Origin: a virus
Taxonomy: Duplodnaviria; Heunggongvirae; Uroviricota; Caudoviricetes
DNA: 64,000 bases
Strand: one strand, 5' to 3'
Virus record (IMG/VR): IMGVR_UViG_2671180724_000008
In this document: positions 10,264 to 56,618 of the stretch, one piece after another
How the letters are laid out: every line of letters begins with the position of its first letter
Numbering within the stretch: position 1 is the first letter of the stretch
Made by a program: the position numbers and the translations under genes
Notes under the pieces: generated by a model
What the model was told of the DNA's origin: nothing
The model's database searches: none
Seen by the model: the letters and a program-made list of their open reading frames with translations, nothing else

Positions 10264-10339
10264 GATGGTGTAGCTCAGCGGTAGAGCAGTTGGCTGTTAA
10301 CCAACTGGTCGGTGGTTCGAATCCACCCACCATCGCCAA
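10264..10339 (+). tRNA. tRNA-Asn (anticodon GUU)
   Basis: Cloverleaf by hand: acceptor GATGGTG/CACCATC, anticodon stem GTTGG/CCAAC with loop CTGTTAA, T-arm GGTGG-TTCGAAT-CCACC, 3' CCA. Confidence 0.8.
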
Positions 10340-10343
10340 TTTA

Positions 10344-10430
10344 GGGGAGTTAGTCCGTAGAGGTAGCGGTGTAGACTGTAAATCTACTGTCATTGCGACT
10401 CGGGTGGTTCGACTCCATCACTCCCCACCA
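10344..10430 (+). tRNA. tRNA-Tyr (anticodon GUA), long variable arm
   Basis: Acceptor GGGGAGT/ACTCCCC, anticodon stem GTAGA/TCTAC with loop CTGTAAA, T-loop TTCGACT, 3' CCA. Confidence 0.7.
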
Positions 10431-10434
10431 AATT

Positions 10435-10510
10435 GCCGGTTTAGCTCAGTTGGTAGAGCGCCTGCCTTGTAAGCAGGATGTCAGCGGTTCGTGTCCGTTA
10501 ACCGGCACCA
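10435..10510 (+). tRNA. tRNA-Thr (anticodon UGU)
   Basis: Acceptor GCCGGTT/AACCGGC, D-arm GCTC-AGTTGGTA-GAGC, anticodon loop CTTGTAA, T-arm AGCGG-TTCGTGT-CCGTT, 3' CCA. Confidence 0.8.
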
Positions 10511-10518
10511 ACATAATA

Positions 10519-10598
10519 TTGAGAACATTGGCGTAACGGGGTCATATCCCAATCTATGAATAAATGTTACGTTGCCGCGTGACAACCAGTGTTCTCAA
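10519..10598. repeat. Stem-enclosed element (TTGAGAACATTGG / CCAGTGTTCTCAA) with nested CGTAAC/GTTACG stem
   Basis: 13-bp inverted repeat; same CACAnnGTTGAG stem family in inverted orientation. Confidence 0.5.
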
Positions 10599-11178
10599 CA
10601 TTGTGGTGAATGCACAGGCTGATGTGCCGCAACTACAGTAGTGCGCGCTTTGCGGGGCTTGCTACAACCCTGTGTCGGAGATCAGCGCCGACCATCACAA
10701 TTTGGCTCTCTTGCAACAGCATAACGCTGAAATATGTCCAACCTGGTGCGGCCTGTTCACCCGCCGTTAGCTCCACGAAACGGAGCGCACAACAGATAAG
10801 AGAACTTCCCATATGGGGCTTGGCTTAAATGCATCGAGTTCTCTTATCGCTGTGTCACAGACAAATTTCCGACAGCCCTGTTTATCATCGGACGCAACCT
10901 AAAAGGTCGAGGCAAAGCCAGGTAATAGCGGAGGGAGTGACACAGCACACAACAGGTAAGAGCATTTGTAGAGTTCGACTCTCTACCGTGGGCTTTTTCC
11001 CGCGATGCGAGCCATAAATGCTCTTTCCGTTGTGGTGGATTCGCAGACTGATGCGATAGCTTTCTTGGATGTTAGGGAAATGCGGCCGCAAATCTTCCCT
11101 TTCGCGAGCGGTGATCGTCCGTAGTCCTAATTGGCTGCACCGTATGCCGGAGATTCAGTACCGGCCACCACAACGGCC

Positions 11179-11265
11179 GGAGAGTAGGGAGCATGGTGCT
11201 CAAGCGGTCTTGAAAACCGTCCCATTGTGCAAACGATGATGGTTCGATTCCATTACTCTCCGCCA
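11179..11265 (+). tRNA. tRNA-Ser (anticodon UGA), long variable arm
   Basis: Acceptor GGAGAGT/ACTCTCC, anticodon stem-loop GGTCTTGAAAACC as in enterobacterial tRNA-Ser(UGA), T-loop TTCGATT, 3' GCCA; D-arm atypical. Confidence 0.65.
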
Positions 11266-48477: not shown

Positions 48478-49071
48478 ATGATTGCAGCCGAAAAAATCAA
48501 ACAGCGAAAGCGCGACAACTCTCTTCGTGACCTCTGGAGAACACCTGATTGGCTGTTTTCTGCCATTCAACGTTATCTTGGAGTGACATTTGATGTTGAC
48601 GTTGCCTGCAACAAGGACAATGCAAAGCTGCCTAATTTCATAGGCATTGAGCGTGATGCTTTGAAATCTGAATGGGGACAGCCAGGTACAATTGCCTTCC
48701 TCAATCCACCCTACTCCAAAATCTCCCCCTGGATTGATGCGGCTATACGTGAGCAGGCTCGCGGAGTTACAACAGTGATGCTAATTCCTCAATCCCTCGA
48801 TACAAAGTGGTATGAGCGTGCAACAGAGTATGCGAATGAGACGATTATTCTGTCTGGTGGCCGCGTAGCGTTTGTCGAGCCTGACGTCAATTTGGGTCAG
48901 GTAGAAGTAAACATCAACCCCGGTGGCAGTATGCTCGTTGTTTTTCGAGGATTCTGTCAGGACGCTGGGCACTCTATAAGCAAGATCCCTTTGGACGTCA
49001 TGAAAAGTCTGGGAGGGTATGATCCTGCGAATGTGGTCAGGAAAAAAAGACCATCAAAGAAGGCTGCTTAG
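48478..49071 (+). CDS. Phage-type DNA N6-adenine methyltransferase (Dam family)
   Basis: WRTPDWLF, FDVDVA and NPPYS motifs. Confidence 0.8.
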   Translation: MIAAEKIKQRKRDNSLRDLWRTPDWLFSAIQRYLGVTFDVDVACNKDNAKLPNFIGIERDALKSEWGQPGTIAFLNPPYSKISPWIDAAIREQARGVTTVMLIPQSLDTKWYERATEYANETIILSGGRVAFVEPDVNLGQVEVNINPGGSMLVVFRGFCQDAGHSISKIPLDVMKSLGGYDPANVVRKKRPSKKAA

Positions 49072-51594: not shown

Positions 51595-52020
51595 ATGTTA
51601 GGTTTCTTCAAAAAGAAAACTCGTAAAGCAGTTATCGAAGTCAAAAAAATGGAGAACCGTGATGCGGTTGAGGCCACCGTGTGGGGCGCGTACATGATCT
51701 CCTATGCCGACGGCACATGTGACGCAAAAGAAATTGCCATTCTTGAGAAGACAATTGCAGCTCTGCCTGCGTTTTCTCCGTTTGCTGGTGAGATTGCCCA
51801 AATGAGCGCCAATATCCGTGCTCGTTACGAAGCGTCCCCTCGTTCCGCTAATGCACAGGCTATGCGTGAGCTGGCTGATATTGCGGGCACTCCAGAGGCG
51901 GTCGATGTTCTGTGTCTGTGCCTTGATATTGCCGACCAGGACGGCATTGGTGAACAAGAAGAGCAGGCACTGAAAAAGATCGCCCAGGCGCTTCAGTTGT
52001 CACTGGATGCTTATCTCTAA
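51595..52020 (+). CDS. TerB-like domain protein (tentative)
   Basis: Pattern YADGTCDAKEIAILEK ... ALQLSLDAYL reminiscent of TerB/DjlA-N family; conserved promoter and RBS motifs upstream. Confidence 0.4.
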   Translation: MLGFFKKKTRKAVIEVKKMENRDAVEATVWGAYMISYADGTCDAKEIAILEKTIAALPAFSPFAGEIAQMSANIRARYEASPRSANAQAMRELADIAGTPEAVDVLCLCLDIADQDGIGEQEEQALKKIAQALQLSLDAYL

Positions 52021-52317: not shown

Positions 52318-52884
52318 ATGTGCGAGAAATGCAAAGCAATAGCTGATGAACAAAACGCCCTATTCGAAGAAATGGATGCTAATGAACTTGTCAAAATGTT
52401 AGGCATTGTTCGGGGAACAGAAGACGTTTCCATATTTGAGAGACTGTTTACAGTACTTAATTTTAATTCCACCTTTGAAGAACCAACTCAGGTTGTAGCT
52501 TTAGCACATCATTTCGGCGTTCATTACCTTGCTGAAAAAGAGAGAGCTGATAAGTTGCAAGCGACTTTGGATATGGTGAGCGAGACTCAAGGAACTCATG
52601 ACGGTAACAAAAGTGAGACGATTATTGCCAGCAAAGATCGTGAAATTGCCGGACTTAAGTCTTCTCTAACGATGTTGATGTCTGCATTCAATCTGATGTC
52701 TTCTAAGGCGGGTTATAAAATGCCGTCACTAAACAGTGACGATCCAATGGCCGTTCGTCAGCTTTTGGGAGCAATGGCCGACCAGCTCGACGACACAAAG
52801 AGTCGCCTTGAAGACATGATGCGGGAGCTCACGCATCGCCATGACTTGAATAAGCAGCCGCACAAAACGCAATACGCACTCTAA
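52318..52884 (+). CDS. Hypothetical protein
   Basis: 188-aa ORF with conserved promoter and RBS motifs. Confidence 0.5.
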   Translation: MCEKCKAIADEQNALFEEMDANELVKMLGIVRGTEDVSIFERLFTVLNFNSTFEEPTQVVALAHHFGVHYLAEKERADKLQATLDMVSETQGTHDGNKSETIIASKDREIAGLKSSLTMLMSAFNLMSSKAGYKMPSLNSDDPMAVRQLLGAMADQLDDTKSRLEDMMRELTHRHDLNKQPHKTQYAL

Positions 52885-52902
52885 TACTGCACCAGTCGAC
52901 AG

Positions 52903-52926
52903 GGGGCGAAAGCCCCCATTTTTACG
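52903..52926 (+). terminator. Rho-independent terminator (GGGGGC-gaaa-GCCCCC then ATTTTT)
   Basis: GC stem with GNRA-like loop plus T-run. Confidence 0.75.
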
Positions 52927-53025
52927 CCTTAAATCTGCTGTAACGCCTATGAATGCAGCTTTTATGCCTTTTCAAGTTTGCGATAATTACACCAATAAGA
53001 AAACAAATTATTTAATGGTGTAATT

Positions 53026-54711
53026 ATGAATACAGCCCTTTCCATCATCGACGATGCCAGCTCAAACACGGCTATCGACTATCGTCAGGAAATGAATGTC
53101 ATCCACGAAATCGTGGCCGAGTGCGAGAAAGAGATCGCCTTCATGTATCAGGTACACGACTTCGTTTATGGCGACGAACGCCACAACATGATTAATCGCC
53201 TGCTGCGACTAAACCATCGACCAGATGAAGATCGCTCGCGTTTAAATCGAGGTTGGTTGGATAAAGTCGATCTGGAATGGGTGAAACAGAATATTTGGGC
53301 CGAGTACTGGAGGAAGGTCACGGACATGACTAACGTTTTGCTGATCATGCCAGCTTCCCGTCGAGATGAGTGGCGCGAGCAGTTTATAGAGGGCAAACAG
53401 GAAGTCATCAAAACTGACAGAACCGGCTACCAGATGAAAGTTAAAGAGTTCGTTGGTGTACCGGAGTTCAAAGCAGAAACGGTCATACCCACGATGCTTA
53501 ATTTGCTGAATGACAGGCACAAATATCTCTCTGAGCGCGTGTATGGCTTGTTTAAGGCGCTGAGTCCTGCGCACAAGACAAATAAGACAAACGGTTTCAG
53601 CGAGCGGCTGATAATCGCTGACTGCATTTCTGATTTCTGGCGGGACAGCGTTAGCGTGAACTATCGCAAAGAGGACTACATCGACGATCTGCGTGTCTTG
53701 CTTCATTTCTTCGCGCACAAAGAATTTATTACCATCAACCGCACTGCTGAGGTGCTATCAGCTGCGTATAGGGCAAACGACTGCCAGACCGGTGACTGGA
53801 TGAACGTCGATGGAAATCTGATGCGCGTGAAGATGTTCAAGAACGGCAACGTTCACTTTGAAATACATCCTGACGTGGCCTGGAAGTTGAATGAGGTGCT
53901 GGCTTACAGTATGCCTGCTGCAATCCCCGCGCCATGCCGCACTGCGCCAAAAACACGGGCACCAAAGCAGTTCGGGTTAATCCAGAAGACGATCTCCGTG
54001 CCGGTTCGCACTGCGCTTCGTGACGGGCGATTGAGCAAAGACAAAGGCGTATGGTACTTCTCTGATTCAGCTCTCCAGAAGTCGCAGGTGGAAGAGCTTG
54101 AGCGCACACTGAGCTTCATTGGCGGCGTGCAGGAGAAAAAGCACTGGCAGTTCCCGTATGACATCGGCCATACGCTAAATACGATTGTGGCTACCGGTTT
54201 AATACCGGATACAAAATCACACCAGTTCTACCCTACCCCACGCTTGATTGCTGAGTACGTTGCCAGAGCCACTGAATTGAAGCCTGGTGAGAAGCTGCTG
54301 GAGCCTCAAGCCGGACGTGGGGATCTTCTGGCCTATATTAACGCCGATCTGGAAGATGTTACCTGCATAGAAATCGCACCTCTCTTCGCTGATATCCTGC
54401 GTGGAAAAGGGTATACGAACACGATTTGCTGCGACTTCATAAAGTGGTCTGAGGACAACGCAGGTTATCAGTTCGACAAAATCGTTATGAACCCGCCGTA
54501 CTCGCTTGGTCGTCATAGAGAGCACACGATGGCTGCGCTGGGGCATCTGAAAGTCGGCGGGCGTCTTGTAGCAGTATTGCCGGGCACTGCGCCAATACTG
54601 GACTGGATGACGATGGATAATTACGTTTATGCCAGAGGGAAGTCGTTTACCAACGAGTTTGAAGACACAGGGATCACAGTCAGCGTATACGTTTTCAAAC
54701 GCGTTAAATGA
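53026..54711 (+). CDS. Two-domain protein: about 400-aa N-terminal region of unknown function fused to C-terminal N6-adenine/N4-cytosine-type DNA methyltransferase domain
   Basis: C-terminal motifs FYPTP, EPQAGRGDL (AdoMet binding) and NPPYS (catalytic). Confidence 0.7.
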   Translation: MNTALSIIDDASSNTAIDYRQEMNVIHEIVAECEKEIAFMYQVHDFVYGDERHNMINRLLRLNHRPDEDRSRLNRGWLDKVDLEWVKQNIWAEYWRKVTDMTNVLLIMPASRRDEWREQFIEGKQEVIKTDRTGYQMKVKEFVGVPEFKAETVIPTMLNLLNDRHKYLSERVYGLFKALSPAHKTNKTNGFSERLIIADCISDFWRDSVSVNYRKEDYIDDLRVLLHFFAHKEFITINRTAEVLSAAYRANDCQTGDWMNVDGNLMRVKMFKNGNVHFEIHPDVAWKLNEVLAYSMPAAIPAPCRTAPKTRAPKQFGLIQKTISVPVRTALRDGRLSKDKGVWYFSDSALQKSQVEELERTLSFIGGVQEKKHWQFPYDIGHTLNTIVATGLIPDTKSHQFYPTPRLIAEYVARATELKPGEKLLEPQAGRGDLLAYINADLEDVTCIEIAPLFADILRGKGYTNTICCDFIKWSEDNAGYQFDKIVMNPPYSLGRHREHTMAALGHLKVGGRLVAVLPGTAPILDWMTMDNYVYARGKSFTNEFEDTGITVSVYVFKRVK

Positions 54712-54772: not shown

Positions 54773-55477
54773 ATGAACAACCTCCAGTTAGAGCATTTTA
54801 ACGTCACAGGCCATTCTGATTTTCCTTTCAAGTTTACATTGAAAGGTTATGCAGAGGATGCGGTAGGCCAGATCATTATTGATAAAGGCATCGTTAAGTT
54901 TGAGGGGAATTTTGATGAATCCGCGAAAACATTCATAGACTTCGTTGCCAAACGTTGGAGCGAGCAATGGAAAGACCTGGAAAAGCGCGCCAATGAGTTT
55001 GATCGGTTCATGGATGCAATGGATACAGCAAAAGAGGCTCTGGCTGCCGGGACTCCGTTAGATCTGGAGTCACTTTTCAACGGCGAAGTGGCCTCTGCAA
55101 TGTTCGCCACCATGTTCGCGGGTGAGTTCGTCCGCAGCGGTGCCAAAAACTACCTTGAGCTGGATTACAACGTCCCTGCAATTGGCGATTTCGTCGTTAC
55201 CATCCAACGCAAAGAAGGTAAGACGCCAGGTGAACGCGTCGCAGAGCTTGAGGCCGTTGTGGATCAGCGTAACGGAGAGTGTGACCGTTTGATCAACGAG
55301 CTTCATGCACTTCGGGAAGAAAGAATATGCGCGGGTAGCAATACACGTAATGCAGCGGATATCTACTTCCAGTTAGTTGAGGAATGCCAGATTCCACCAG
55401 GTGGCTCTCTTGTCGATTACGTAAGACATTTAATGGCGGAAGTTAGCTCCAGCCATAAAGATGGTGAGGTGCGCTGA
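54773..55477 (+). CDS. Hypothetical protein
   Basis: 234-aa ORF. Confidence 0.5.
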   Translation: MNNLQLEHFNVTGHSDFPFKFTLKGYAEDAVGQIIIDKGIVKFEGNFDESAKTFIDFVAKRWSEQWKDLEKRANEFDRFMDAMDTAKEALAAGTPLDLESLFNGEVASAMFATMFAGEFVRSGAKNYLELDYNVPAIGDFVVTIQRKEGKTPGERVAELEAVVDQRNGECDRLINELHALREERICAGSNTRNAADIYFQLVEECQIPPGGSLVDYVRHLMAEVSSSHKDGEVR

Positions 55478-55857
55478 TGTTTGGCATTGACGCACAGCGT
55501 ATAGCCGCTTTTGCAAAAAGCCCTCTTGATAATCCCTTGTCTCGTAGTGAGCAAATGGAGCTGGCAAGGCTTTTTCTTCATATTCAAAAACAGTCAGACG
55601 TTTTCAATAACATGCCTGATCAACCTATTCTGGATGGTCACATCCAGATGGTCATTAACAGTCATGAGAAAGGCTGGGCTGCAATCGTCCCCAGCACAAT
55701 TACATACAAGTTGGCGAAAGAGGTTCAAGAGTTTCGAAAAGCCAGTGTCGAATCGGAGTCTACCAAAGCCGCAATAAACACTCTTATTCGCATGGGATTC
55801 ACATGGAACGGTGGAGCCTACTGGCAAGCACCTCACCCCATTTTATCCGGCAATTAG
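55477..55857 (+). CDS. Hypothetical protein
   Basis: 126-aa ORF coupled to upstream gene. Confidence 0.45.
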   Translation: MFGIDAQRIAAFAKSPLDNPLSRSEQMELARLFLHIQKQSDVFNNMPDQPILDGHIQMVINSHEKGWAAIVPSTITYKLAKEVQEFRKASVESESTKAAINTLIRMGFTWNGGAYWQAPHPILSGN

Positions 55858-55976: not shown

Positions 55977-56618
55977 ATGTCTAGTATTTCCGAAGCTCAT
56001 ATGTTCGCCGCTGGCGCTCATGGTGGCGTTGGTCAGAAAAGAAAATATACCGGCGAAGACTACATCAACCACCCGGTTGCTGTCCGAGAGATTGTTGCAT
56101 TGCATGACGGAACCGTGGAGATGCAAATCGCGGCGCTTCTGCATGATGTGGTCGAAGACACCCATGTAACCATAGAGATGGTTCGTGATCACTTCGGTGA
56201 GCGCGTAGCTGAAATGGTTCAGGCTCTGACCAACATTGCAAGGCCAGAAGACGGCAATCGAATACAGCGTTTCATCATCAATGTCCGGGAGCTGGAGCAA
56301 AATCTCGACATGCAGACGCGCATGATCAAGCTGGCTGACCTGCTCGACAATACCTCTTCTATCGTGAGTCGCGATCCCGAGTTTTCAGCTGTCTACCTCG
56401 CAGAGAAAGAACTGATGCTGGACGTACTCTTTCACGGCAAAGAGATTGGTGCCAACGCTGATGTTGTCGAGTACATGGAGAGGAAAGGTATAGAACACCC
56501 GTTGCTATTAAGTGCAATGGCGAAAGTCACTGAAGGTATTGCGCTTCTGAAACCGGTACACATCAAACGTTATGAAAAACACAAATCGCTGATCTGGAGC
56601 GCGTGGGAGGCTGCATGA
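55977..56618 (+). CDS. HD-domain protein resembling the (p)ppGpp hydrolase domain of SpoT/RelA (small alarmone hydrolase-like)
   Basis: AHGGVGQKRKYTGEDYINHPVAV and AALLHDVVEDT match the SpoT/Mesh1 HD motifs as recalled. Confidence 0.6.
   Translation: MSSISEAHMFAAGAHGGVGQKRKYTGEDYINHPVAVREIVALHDGTVEMQIAALLHDVVEDTHVTIEMVRDHFGERVAEMVQALTNIARPEDGNRIQRFIINVRELEQNLDMQTRMIKLADLLDNTSSIVSRDPEFSAVYLAEKELMLDVLFHGKEIGANADVVEYMERKGIEHPLLLSAMAKVTEGIALLKPVHIKRYEKHKSLIWSAWEAA

Follow-up and report, generated by a model that had tools for sequence, protein, structure and literature searches.

A DUF4942 module fused to a minimal methyltransferase domain in an SSU5-like phage-plasmid of Escherichia

Introduction

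What does a long N-terminal region contribute to a phage-encoded methyltransferase (MTase) whose catalytic motifs all lie toward the C terminus? The question is raised by one gene in a 64,000-nt stretch of Caudoviricetes DNA (IMG/VR record IMGVR_UViG_2671180724_000008; hereafter the window), which belongs to an SSU5-like phage-plasmid of Escherichia. The gene is an open reading frame (ORF) of 561 codons that runs from ATG to stop at 53026–54711 on the + strand in the ORF list of the window, exactly where a preliminary description of the sequence had placed it. That description had read the product as an N-terminal domain without recognizable motifs, perhaps a new target-recognition or effector domain, joined to a DNA MTase. 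The ORF list, nucleotide identity, and PHROG 6263 together identify the whole ORF as a DUF4942–MTase fusion and a homologue of SSU5 gp095.

On balance, we favor the following answer. The protein is a solitary MTase dependent on S-adenosylmethionine (AdoMet), and we infer that it most probably methylates adenine N6 in DNA and thereby protects the DNA of the element from restriction, with DUF4942 providing substrate engagement or targeting, which is missing from the catalytic domain by itself.

Catalytic domain

Residues 396–561 (54211–54708, + strand, as for all features of the gene given below) form a minimal class I, AdoMet-dependent amino-MTase domain of the γ motif order and NPPY type, with seven β-strands and no target-recognition domain (TRD) after it. 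A phmmer alignment to M.TaqI pairs motifs X, I, II, III, and IV in γ order. The motif X-like FYPTP (residues 401–405; 54226–54240) pairs with ETPP of M.TaqI; motif I, the AdoMet-binding loop EPQAGRGDL (426–434; 54301–54327), with LEPACAHGPF; motif II, TCIEI with the acidic E449 (446–450; 54361–54375), with VGVEI; and motif III, CCDFIKW (468–474; 54427–54447), with LADFLLW. Motif IV, NPPY (489–492; 54490–54501), is the catalytic tetrapeptide of amino-MTases. The complete γ-class series, that is X, I, II, III, IV (NPPY), and V–VIII, lies on one Rossmann domain. As the preliminary description had it, the motifs are confined to the C-terminal ~170 residues: FYPTP, EPQAGRGDL, and NPPYS (489–493) all fall in the last ~160.

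The motifs are intact and conserved. In a 30-sequence alignment (A1) with identities down to 34%, Q400, F401, Y402, P403, and P405 of motif X, P427, A429, and G430 of motif I, T446 and E449 of motif II, F471 of motif III, and N489, P490, and P491 of motif IV are invariant. D470 of motif III is present in at least 90% of sequences. The motif residues that pair with M.TaqI are likewise kept in at least 90% of 130 cluster representatives of the family.

In a full-length AlphaFold2 model (predicted local distance difference test score, pLDDT, 80.7), the catalytic domain superposes over 150–160 residues at ~2.2 Å on solved MTase structures. Among the top structural matches, the highest sequence identity (24–26%) is to the DNA MTases M.TaqI and CamA. 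Type II MTase models of a defence library also match the domain (E = 2e-10), which is acidic (median isoelectric point, pI, 5.3). The last strand of the modeled domain (residues 551–559) nearly ends the protein. Because the chain terminates right after this last strand of the fold, a C-terminal TRD of the M.TaqI kind is absent, and the only extra sequence is N-terminal. The arrangement is thus unlike that of the γ-class N6-adenine MTases M.TaqI, M.BseCI, and CamA (Pfam N6_Mtase/Eco57I type): M.TaqI has its own TRD C-terminal to the catalytic domain, whereas the window protein stops after motif VIII and instead places a 395-residue region ahead of the catalytic domain.

N-terminal region

The region that precedes the catalytic domain is built around DUF4942. 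Pfam PF13708 (DUF4942) matches residues 140–295 with a score of 74 bits, where the cut-off is 25 (E = 1.7e-20), and PHROG 6263, annotated as "DNA methyltransferase", aligns residues 1–561 with positions 1–548 of its 548-position profile (E = 1e-299). All 16 members of a second alignment (A2) match DUF4942, and Pfam scans of all members returned no other domain. The N-terminal two-thirds had been described as having no recognizable motif and as possibly new; neither statement survives the Pfam match, the end-to-end PHROG match, and the finding, detailed below, that a large catalogued family shares this fusion as its fixed architecture. The division into two modules, with an N-terminal part that does not appear to be a known TRD, does stand, and the part of the proposal that had this region reading a variable target sequence is probably wrong.

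Three segments can be distinguished. Residues 1–87 (53026–53286), the least conserved, comprise a disordered tip (pLDDT <50 for residues 1–16) followed by long helices (residues 20–48 and 52–62) and have a pI of 5.05. The DUF4942 core, residues 88–305 (53287–53940), is supported by PF13708, by hhalign, and by alignment with the stand-alone DUF4942 proteins described below. It carries the near-invariant motifs H183-x-T185-N186, D221-L222-R223, and H277-x-E-x-H281-P-D and is interrupted by a variable hairpin insertion at residues 121–145. Residues 306–395 (53941–54210) consist, from the secondary structure of the AlphaFold2 model, of a proline-rich and basic linker with a conserved IPxxxR...PKxF pattern and a small α/β subdomain that leads into the catalytic domain. 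This third segment is variable, has a pI of 9.6 in the window protein, and goes with the MTase domain both in PHROG 9133 (residues 328–560, E = 3e-50) and in a natural recombinant considered below. We refer to residues 1–305 as module A and to residues 306–561 as module B.

Conservation is distributed unevenly over these segments. Over the 130 representatives, mean pairwise identity is 20% for residues 1–87, 46% for residues 88–305, 26% for residues 306–395, and 42% for residues 396–561; the DUF4942 core is the most conserved region, with 42 columns at 90% identity or above, and the ranking of the regions is unchanged in the 30-sequence alignment. Where a TRD determines specificity, it is normally the region that varies most. 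The DUF4942 core is more conserved than the catalytic core and is therefore unlike such a TRD; its pattern would fit a constant job better than the reading of a target sequence. The best candidate for an element that modulates specificity is the variable segment of residues 306–395.

This pattern bears directly on the preliminary proposal that the N-terminal region sets the sequence motif of the enzyme and gives it a specificity different from that of another MTase in the window. The other enzyme exists, and the fusion protein is indeed a second MTase: the one other NPPY-bearing ORF in the window, at 48478–49071 on the + strand (197 residues, ~4 kb upstream of the fusion gene), encodes a Dam-family N6-adenine MTase (PF05869, E = 5e-38) homologous to SSU5 gp088. 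A TRD role would account for the lack of a TRD after motif VIII, where the enzyme departs from M.TaqI, and for the absence of a separate specificity subunit near the gene in the 77 loci examined, the N-terminal region being the sole DNA-binding candidate in cis. Weakened as it is by a core that outranks the catalytic domain in conservation, we regard this role as improbable.

The DUF4942 core and residues 306–395 are both basic (median pI 8.8 and 8.6, respectively), which is compatible with nucleic acid binding. An acidic DNA-mimic anti-restriction protein of the ArdA or Ocr kind is, at the pI of the core, an unlikely identity for DUF4942. A profile search of the N-terminal region against PDB sequences gave no match, and a fold search matched no enzyme fold; a search of BFVD returned two weak matches, both to proteins without a functional name, and structural comparison of the region gave a weak winged-helix match. 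A metal-dependent N-terminal enzyme was considered on account of the H-x-E-x-H-P-D and H-x-T-N motifs. It finds no support: stand-alone DUF4942 proteins carry other residues in place of H183, R223, and H281, and the fold search gave no enzyme match. In the fused subfamily such an activity is still conceivable.

Family architecture and genomic context

A phmmer search with residues 1–390 alone against 1.84 billion representatives retrieved 610 clusters at E ≤0.001. Among the representatives of the best 149 of these clusters, 130 are 500–600 residues long and match at the same place, and the shorter ones are truncated, frameshifted, or pseudogenes. In 76 of 80 genomic loci from Gamma-, Beta-, and Alphaproteobacteria, a single ORF carries both the HP[DE]xAW motif of DUF4942 and, 199–230 residues farther on, motif IV. 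Because so many representatives and loci share it, the architecture is fixed in the family and not peculiar to the window; a one-off fusion and an assembly or frameshift artefact are ruled out on the same counts. The family as a whole occupies phages, prophages, phage-plasmids, and IncHI2 plasmids. Phages of Aeromonas, Pseudomonas, Vibrio, and Marinomonas encode full-length homologues, and on IncHI2 plasmids the fusion is a protein of 563 residues. DUF4942 matches labeled methyltransferase or hypothetical protein are present as well in phages of Rhizobium, Fusobacterium, Tenacibaculum, Tunturiibacter, and Bacillus.

The boundary between the modules is marked by the natural recombinant (P0044), a member of the SSU5-like group. 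Its residues 1–305 are 97–98% identical to the E. coli/Citrobacter type, and its residues 306–561 are 99–100% identical to the Klebsiella type. In comparison with P0008 and P0080, the exchange falls exactly at the DUF4942/MTase junction and confirms a module boundary there.

The gene of the window is a further copy of this common, widespread family, which is already catalogued in databases. It shares 99.8% nucleotide identity with a gene of the E. coli plasmid p009_B and 89.8% with gene 095 of Salmonella phage SSU5, and copies of it are found in 9 phage records and 457 PLSDB plasmids, most of which (446) are non-mobilizable. Database names for its product are "YdiA", "DNA methyltransferase", and "DUF4942 domain-containing protein". 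In p009_B and SSU5, the neighborhood of the gene encodes thymidylate synthase, DHFR, a 3'-5' exonuclease, RNase H, and the Dam-like MTase.

Clustering of every ORF within 6 kb in 77 loci disclosed no recurring nuclease or other partner adjoining the gene; the best-conserved neighbor family, a CI-like S24 repressor, is present in 8 of the 77. The MTase is solitary, that is, an orphan. Two distant homologues, one from an Enterobacterales strain and the other from Variovorax, are encoded in lambdoid early-right regions, beside CI/Cro-like genes, replication genes, and other orphan MTases.

The orphan status decides against the notion that the protein is the modification half of a plasmid-borne restriction-modification system or of another, for example MADS-like, defence system. 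The notion has some basis in database matches: the protein scores against the PADLOC mad2 model (E = 2.5e-15) and weakly against type IIG models, and some phage records name homologues "RE endonuclease" or "restriction methylase". The PADLOC matches, however, cover the catalytic domain only (residues 394–523). In addition to the lack of a conserved partner in the 77 loci, no nuclease is annotated near the gene in p009_B or SSU5; the three immediate neighbors in the window (52318–52884, 54773–55477, and 55477–55857) could be assigned to no Pfam family, and the remaining nearby genes that were tested belong to the HD_4, Dam, and TerB families. We therefore reject this possibility, to which we would assign only the slightest probability.

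Stand-alone DUF4942 proteins

DUF4942 also occurs by itself. Pseudoalteromonas phage PS_L5 encodes, in its early region (L086:2698-3453), a 251-residue stand-alone DUF4942 protein (Pfam E = 2e-46) that hhalign matches to residues 83–297 of the window protein with a probability of 98.7%, and conjugative plasmids encode DUF4942 proteins of 259–286 residues without an MTase domain. A tblastn search with the PS_L5 protein reached at least 5000 PLSDB plasmids, with 4556 conjugative plasmids among the matches listed. The domain is present in CP4-type genomic islands and in SPI-3 as well.

On plasmids, the stand-alone gene keeps characteristic company. In the IncI-γ plasmid NZ_CP021208 (L089:8749-9597), it directly adjoins oriT/nikA, downstream of psiB-psiA-ardA; in a pOXA-48-like IncL/M plasmid (L090:7941-8801), it is found with ssb, an anti-restriction gene, and DUF1380; and in pWW0 (L088:7001-7780), it is found with umuD, ligD, a cytosine MTase gene, recX, and ssb. 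Its companions in leading regions include ardA, klcA/ardB-type genes, psiB, and ssb. In a supplementary table of Samuel and Burstein (Nature 2024; PMC11541004), the 100 largest leading-region-enriched families include two of DUF4942, both labeled uncharacterized: family #24, with 2171 members, a false discovery rate-corrected p of 0, and a median position of 1 from oriT, and family #76, with 551 members.

In an alignment with the IncI, IncL/M, and pWW0 proteins, the stand-alone forms cover residues ~20–300 of the window protein and end where the linker begins. Module A corresponds to a complete protein of the YdiA/YgfB type, homologous through PF13708, and what sets the stand-alone proteins apart is their length of 250–286 residues, the lack of an MTase domain, and a position next to oriT among anti-restriction and SOS-inhibition genes. 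W95, T102, T185-N186, D221-L222, G274, H277, and N289 are common to the fused and stand-alone forms, whereas H183, R223, and H281 are specific to the fused family.

The independent existence of the domain supports a second account, in which the fusion is a two-function, "polyvalent" protein. DUF4942 would then itself be an anti-defence or establishment effector. It might, for example, inhibit a component of host restriction or of another defence, serve as a decoy for it, or act on incoming DNA; the MTase would not need DUF4942 to find its substrate, and the two would be fused only so that two counter-defence activities arrive together. Such an account fits the abundance of the stand-alone protein beside anti-restriction genes in leading regions, its median first place from oriT in 2171 elements, and the frequent use of a related MTase domain as a module of giant polyvalent, DarB-like phage proteins. 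The IncI-γ plasmid and the pOXA-48-like IncL/M plasmid above, both of which carry DUF4942, show no annotated YdcA-like MTase (see below) in the annotated stretches of ~37 kb and ~17 kb, respectively, that were read, and the strong conservation of DUF4942 would suit a conserved host target.

What speaks for dependence of the MTase on DUF4942 is the persistence of the linkage. Most of the listed phage DUF4942 matches carry methyltransferase or methylase labels across distant phyla, the same architecture recurs on IncHI2 plasmids, and a linkage so persistent more usually reflects functional dependence. The bare catalytic domain, moreover, has no other nucleic acid-binding part, DUF4942 is neutral to basic, unlike the acidic mimics, and the replacement of H183, R223, and H281 in the stand-alone proteins means that the two forms may act differently. 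We consider the polyvalent account possible, perhaps a one-in-several prospect, and continue to favor a targeting role for DUF4942.

Related enzymes

The closest parallel to module B is YdcA, a 187-residue class I AdoMet-dependent MTase of the IncF leading region. Its catalytic domain is homologous to that of the window protein (31% identity over 121 residues, E = 6e-15), and the two share the motifs QF..P, LEP.AG.G, and NPP[YF]S.G. YdcA differs in being a stand-alone minimal enzyme that is preceded by a separate DUF3560 gene, ydbA, in place of DUF4942. In the IncF plasmid OZ026771 (L091:10506-12477), ydcA lies 47 nt downstream of ydbA, which encodes a 453-residue DUF3560 protein. The ydbA-ydcA pair may be a two-gene analogue of an accessory domain combined with a TRD-less MTase.

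A plasmid MTase that needs a targeting partner has a precedent. M.EcoGIX and M.BceJIII are single-strand-specific orphan adenine MTases of plasmids, expressed early to evade restriction and active in vitro only when tethered to the host replication protein PolI (Fomenkov et al. 2020, PMC7736820). Enzymes of this type are of the β class, with a DPPY motif (PMC7736820), belong to PF01555, and have ~227 residues. Membership of the window protein in this family is ruled out: there is no PF01555 match, and BLASTP of module B against the 227-residue PF01555 enzyme of IncF gives E = 0.78.

Catalytic domains of the same type as that of module B are also found in the giant polyvalent, DarB-like phage proteins (PHROGs 9133, 15406, 11358, and others), and PHROG 9133 has the preceding subdomain as well. 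These proteins differ in their size of 1200–3900 residues and in their many other domains, and DUF4942 was undetected in them here.

Functional interpretation

The mechanism that we favor joins these observations as follows. Module B would contribute the basic linker with its small subdomain and then the minimal γ-order NPPY Rossmann domain, which lacks a TRD of its own. The enzyme would methylate the element's own DNA, which would then withstand host restriction when the element enters a new cell or has been induced; the gene lies in a region of replication and nucleotide metabolism genes, and we assume its expression at replication. The DUF4942 module would supply the constant function that is missing from the bare catalytic domain and would read no variable target sequence. 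It may hold the nucleic acid, recognize an invariant feature of incoming or replicating DNA, or contact a host factor. Variation in specificity, if there is any, would more likely reside in residues 306–395. For the second MTase of the window, the preliminary description had envisaged host-range or epigenetic control; an anti-restriction role would account for the context more economically.

Several observations weigh against this interpretation. All matches to Pfam and NCBIfam MTase models are below the cut-offs, that to Pfam N6_Mtase (PF02384) reaching 13.5 bits where 20.4 are required. Because the IncI-γ and IncL/M stretches that carry a stand-alone DUF4942 gene show no annotated YdcA-like MTase, their gene content suggests that DUF4942 has a function independent of methylation. 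Literature searches on DUF4942, ydiA, and the methylase or methylome of SSU5 or pHCM2 yielded table mentions or nothing, and they turned up no experiment on a family member. Finally, METTL5, KsgA, and Erm, which are RNA N6-methyladenine (m6A) MTases, are as near to the catalytic domain structurally as the DNA MTases are.

The last point allows for a substrate other than DNA. The enzyme could methylate RNA, forming m6A or N2-methylguanine (m2G) in rRNA or tRNA, or protein, as in HemK-like glutamine methylation, and so modulate host translation. The structural proximity of METTL5, KsgA, and Erm is matched by sequence identities of only 14–20%, and these are cellular RNA enzymes with neither DUF4942 nor a mobile-element context. 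M.TaqI and CamA stand highest in identity, the type II MTase models match as given above, and the genes of relatives are grouped with those of other DNA MTases in phage early regions and plasmid leading regions. We hold a non-DNA substrate to be quite improbable, more so than a TRD role for DUF4942, and retain DNA adenine as the presumed target.

In itself the gene matters little, being a common and already annotated orphan MTase of SSU5-like phage-plasmids. Its value is as a clue, since stand-alone DUF4942 is among the most abundant uncharacterized leading-region families, including those of the clinically important IncF, IncI, IncL/M (pOXA-48), and IncP-9 plasmids. The persistent fusion to an adenine MTase in phages would indicate that DUF4942 addresses the same problem, that of bringing foreign DNA past host defences. 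We tentatively raise the possibility, which we would put below even chances, that DUF4942 is a self-standing counter-defence or establishment module that acts on or marks new or replicating DNA or a conserved host factor and that has been welded in phages to a TRD-less adenine MTase. If so, the fusion would provide the first functional handle on the YdiA/YgfB proteins, typically encoded by the first gene to enter a recipient. It would also represent a new way to direct an MTase, by a conserved targeting domain in place of a sequence-reading TRD, with methylation that is possibly non-specific or structure-specific. Targeting that is independent of sequence motifs would bear on unassigned or diffuse m6A signals in plasmid-bearing enterobacteria, and P0044 is a ready-made natural module swap.

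Flanking region and other observations

Two genes close to the MTase gene have assignable products. A TerB-domain protein of 141 residues (PF05099) is encoded at 51595–52020 on the + strand, and an HD_4-type HD-domain phosphohydrolase of 213 residues (PF13328), of the RelA/SpoT-hydrolase-like HD family, at 55977–56618 on the + strand.

A terminator-like GC hairpin followed by a T-run at 52902–52926 (+), recognized by consensus scan and in the sequence, appears to close the upstream gene ~100 nt before the start codon; the call is a pattern match only, with 3 such sites in the region against 3.4 expected by chance. The putative hairpin suggests that the MTase gene starts its own transcription unit. 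A scan for consensus promoters gave none upstream of the gene. By eye, TGCGATAAT at 52979–52987 (+), 39 nt before the start codon, resembles an extended -10 element, a weak lead on which the consensus scan is silent.

Elsewhere in the window, a cluster of four tRNA genes (Asn-GTT, Tyr-GTA, Thr-TGT, and Ser-TGA) occupies 10264–11265 on the + strand. In the near-identical plasmid p009_B, at L001:17531-19686 and downstream of the region that matches the window, cellular-type apbC and metG, which encode an iron-sulfur cluster carrier and methionyl-tRNA ligase, respectively, adjoin an S24 peptidase gene.

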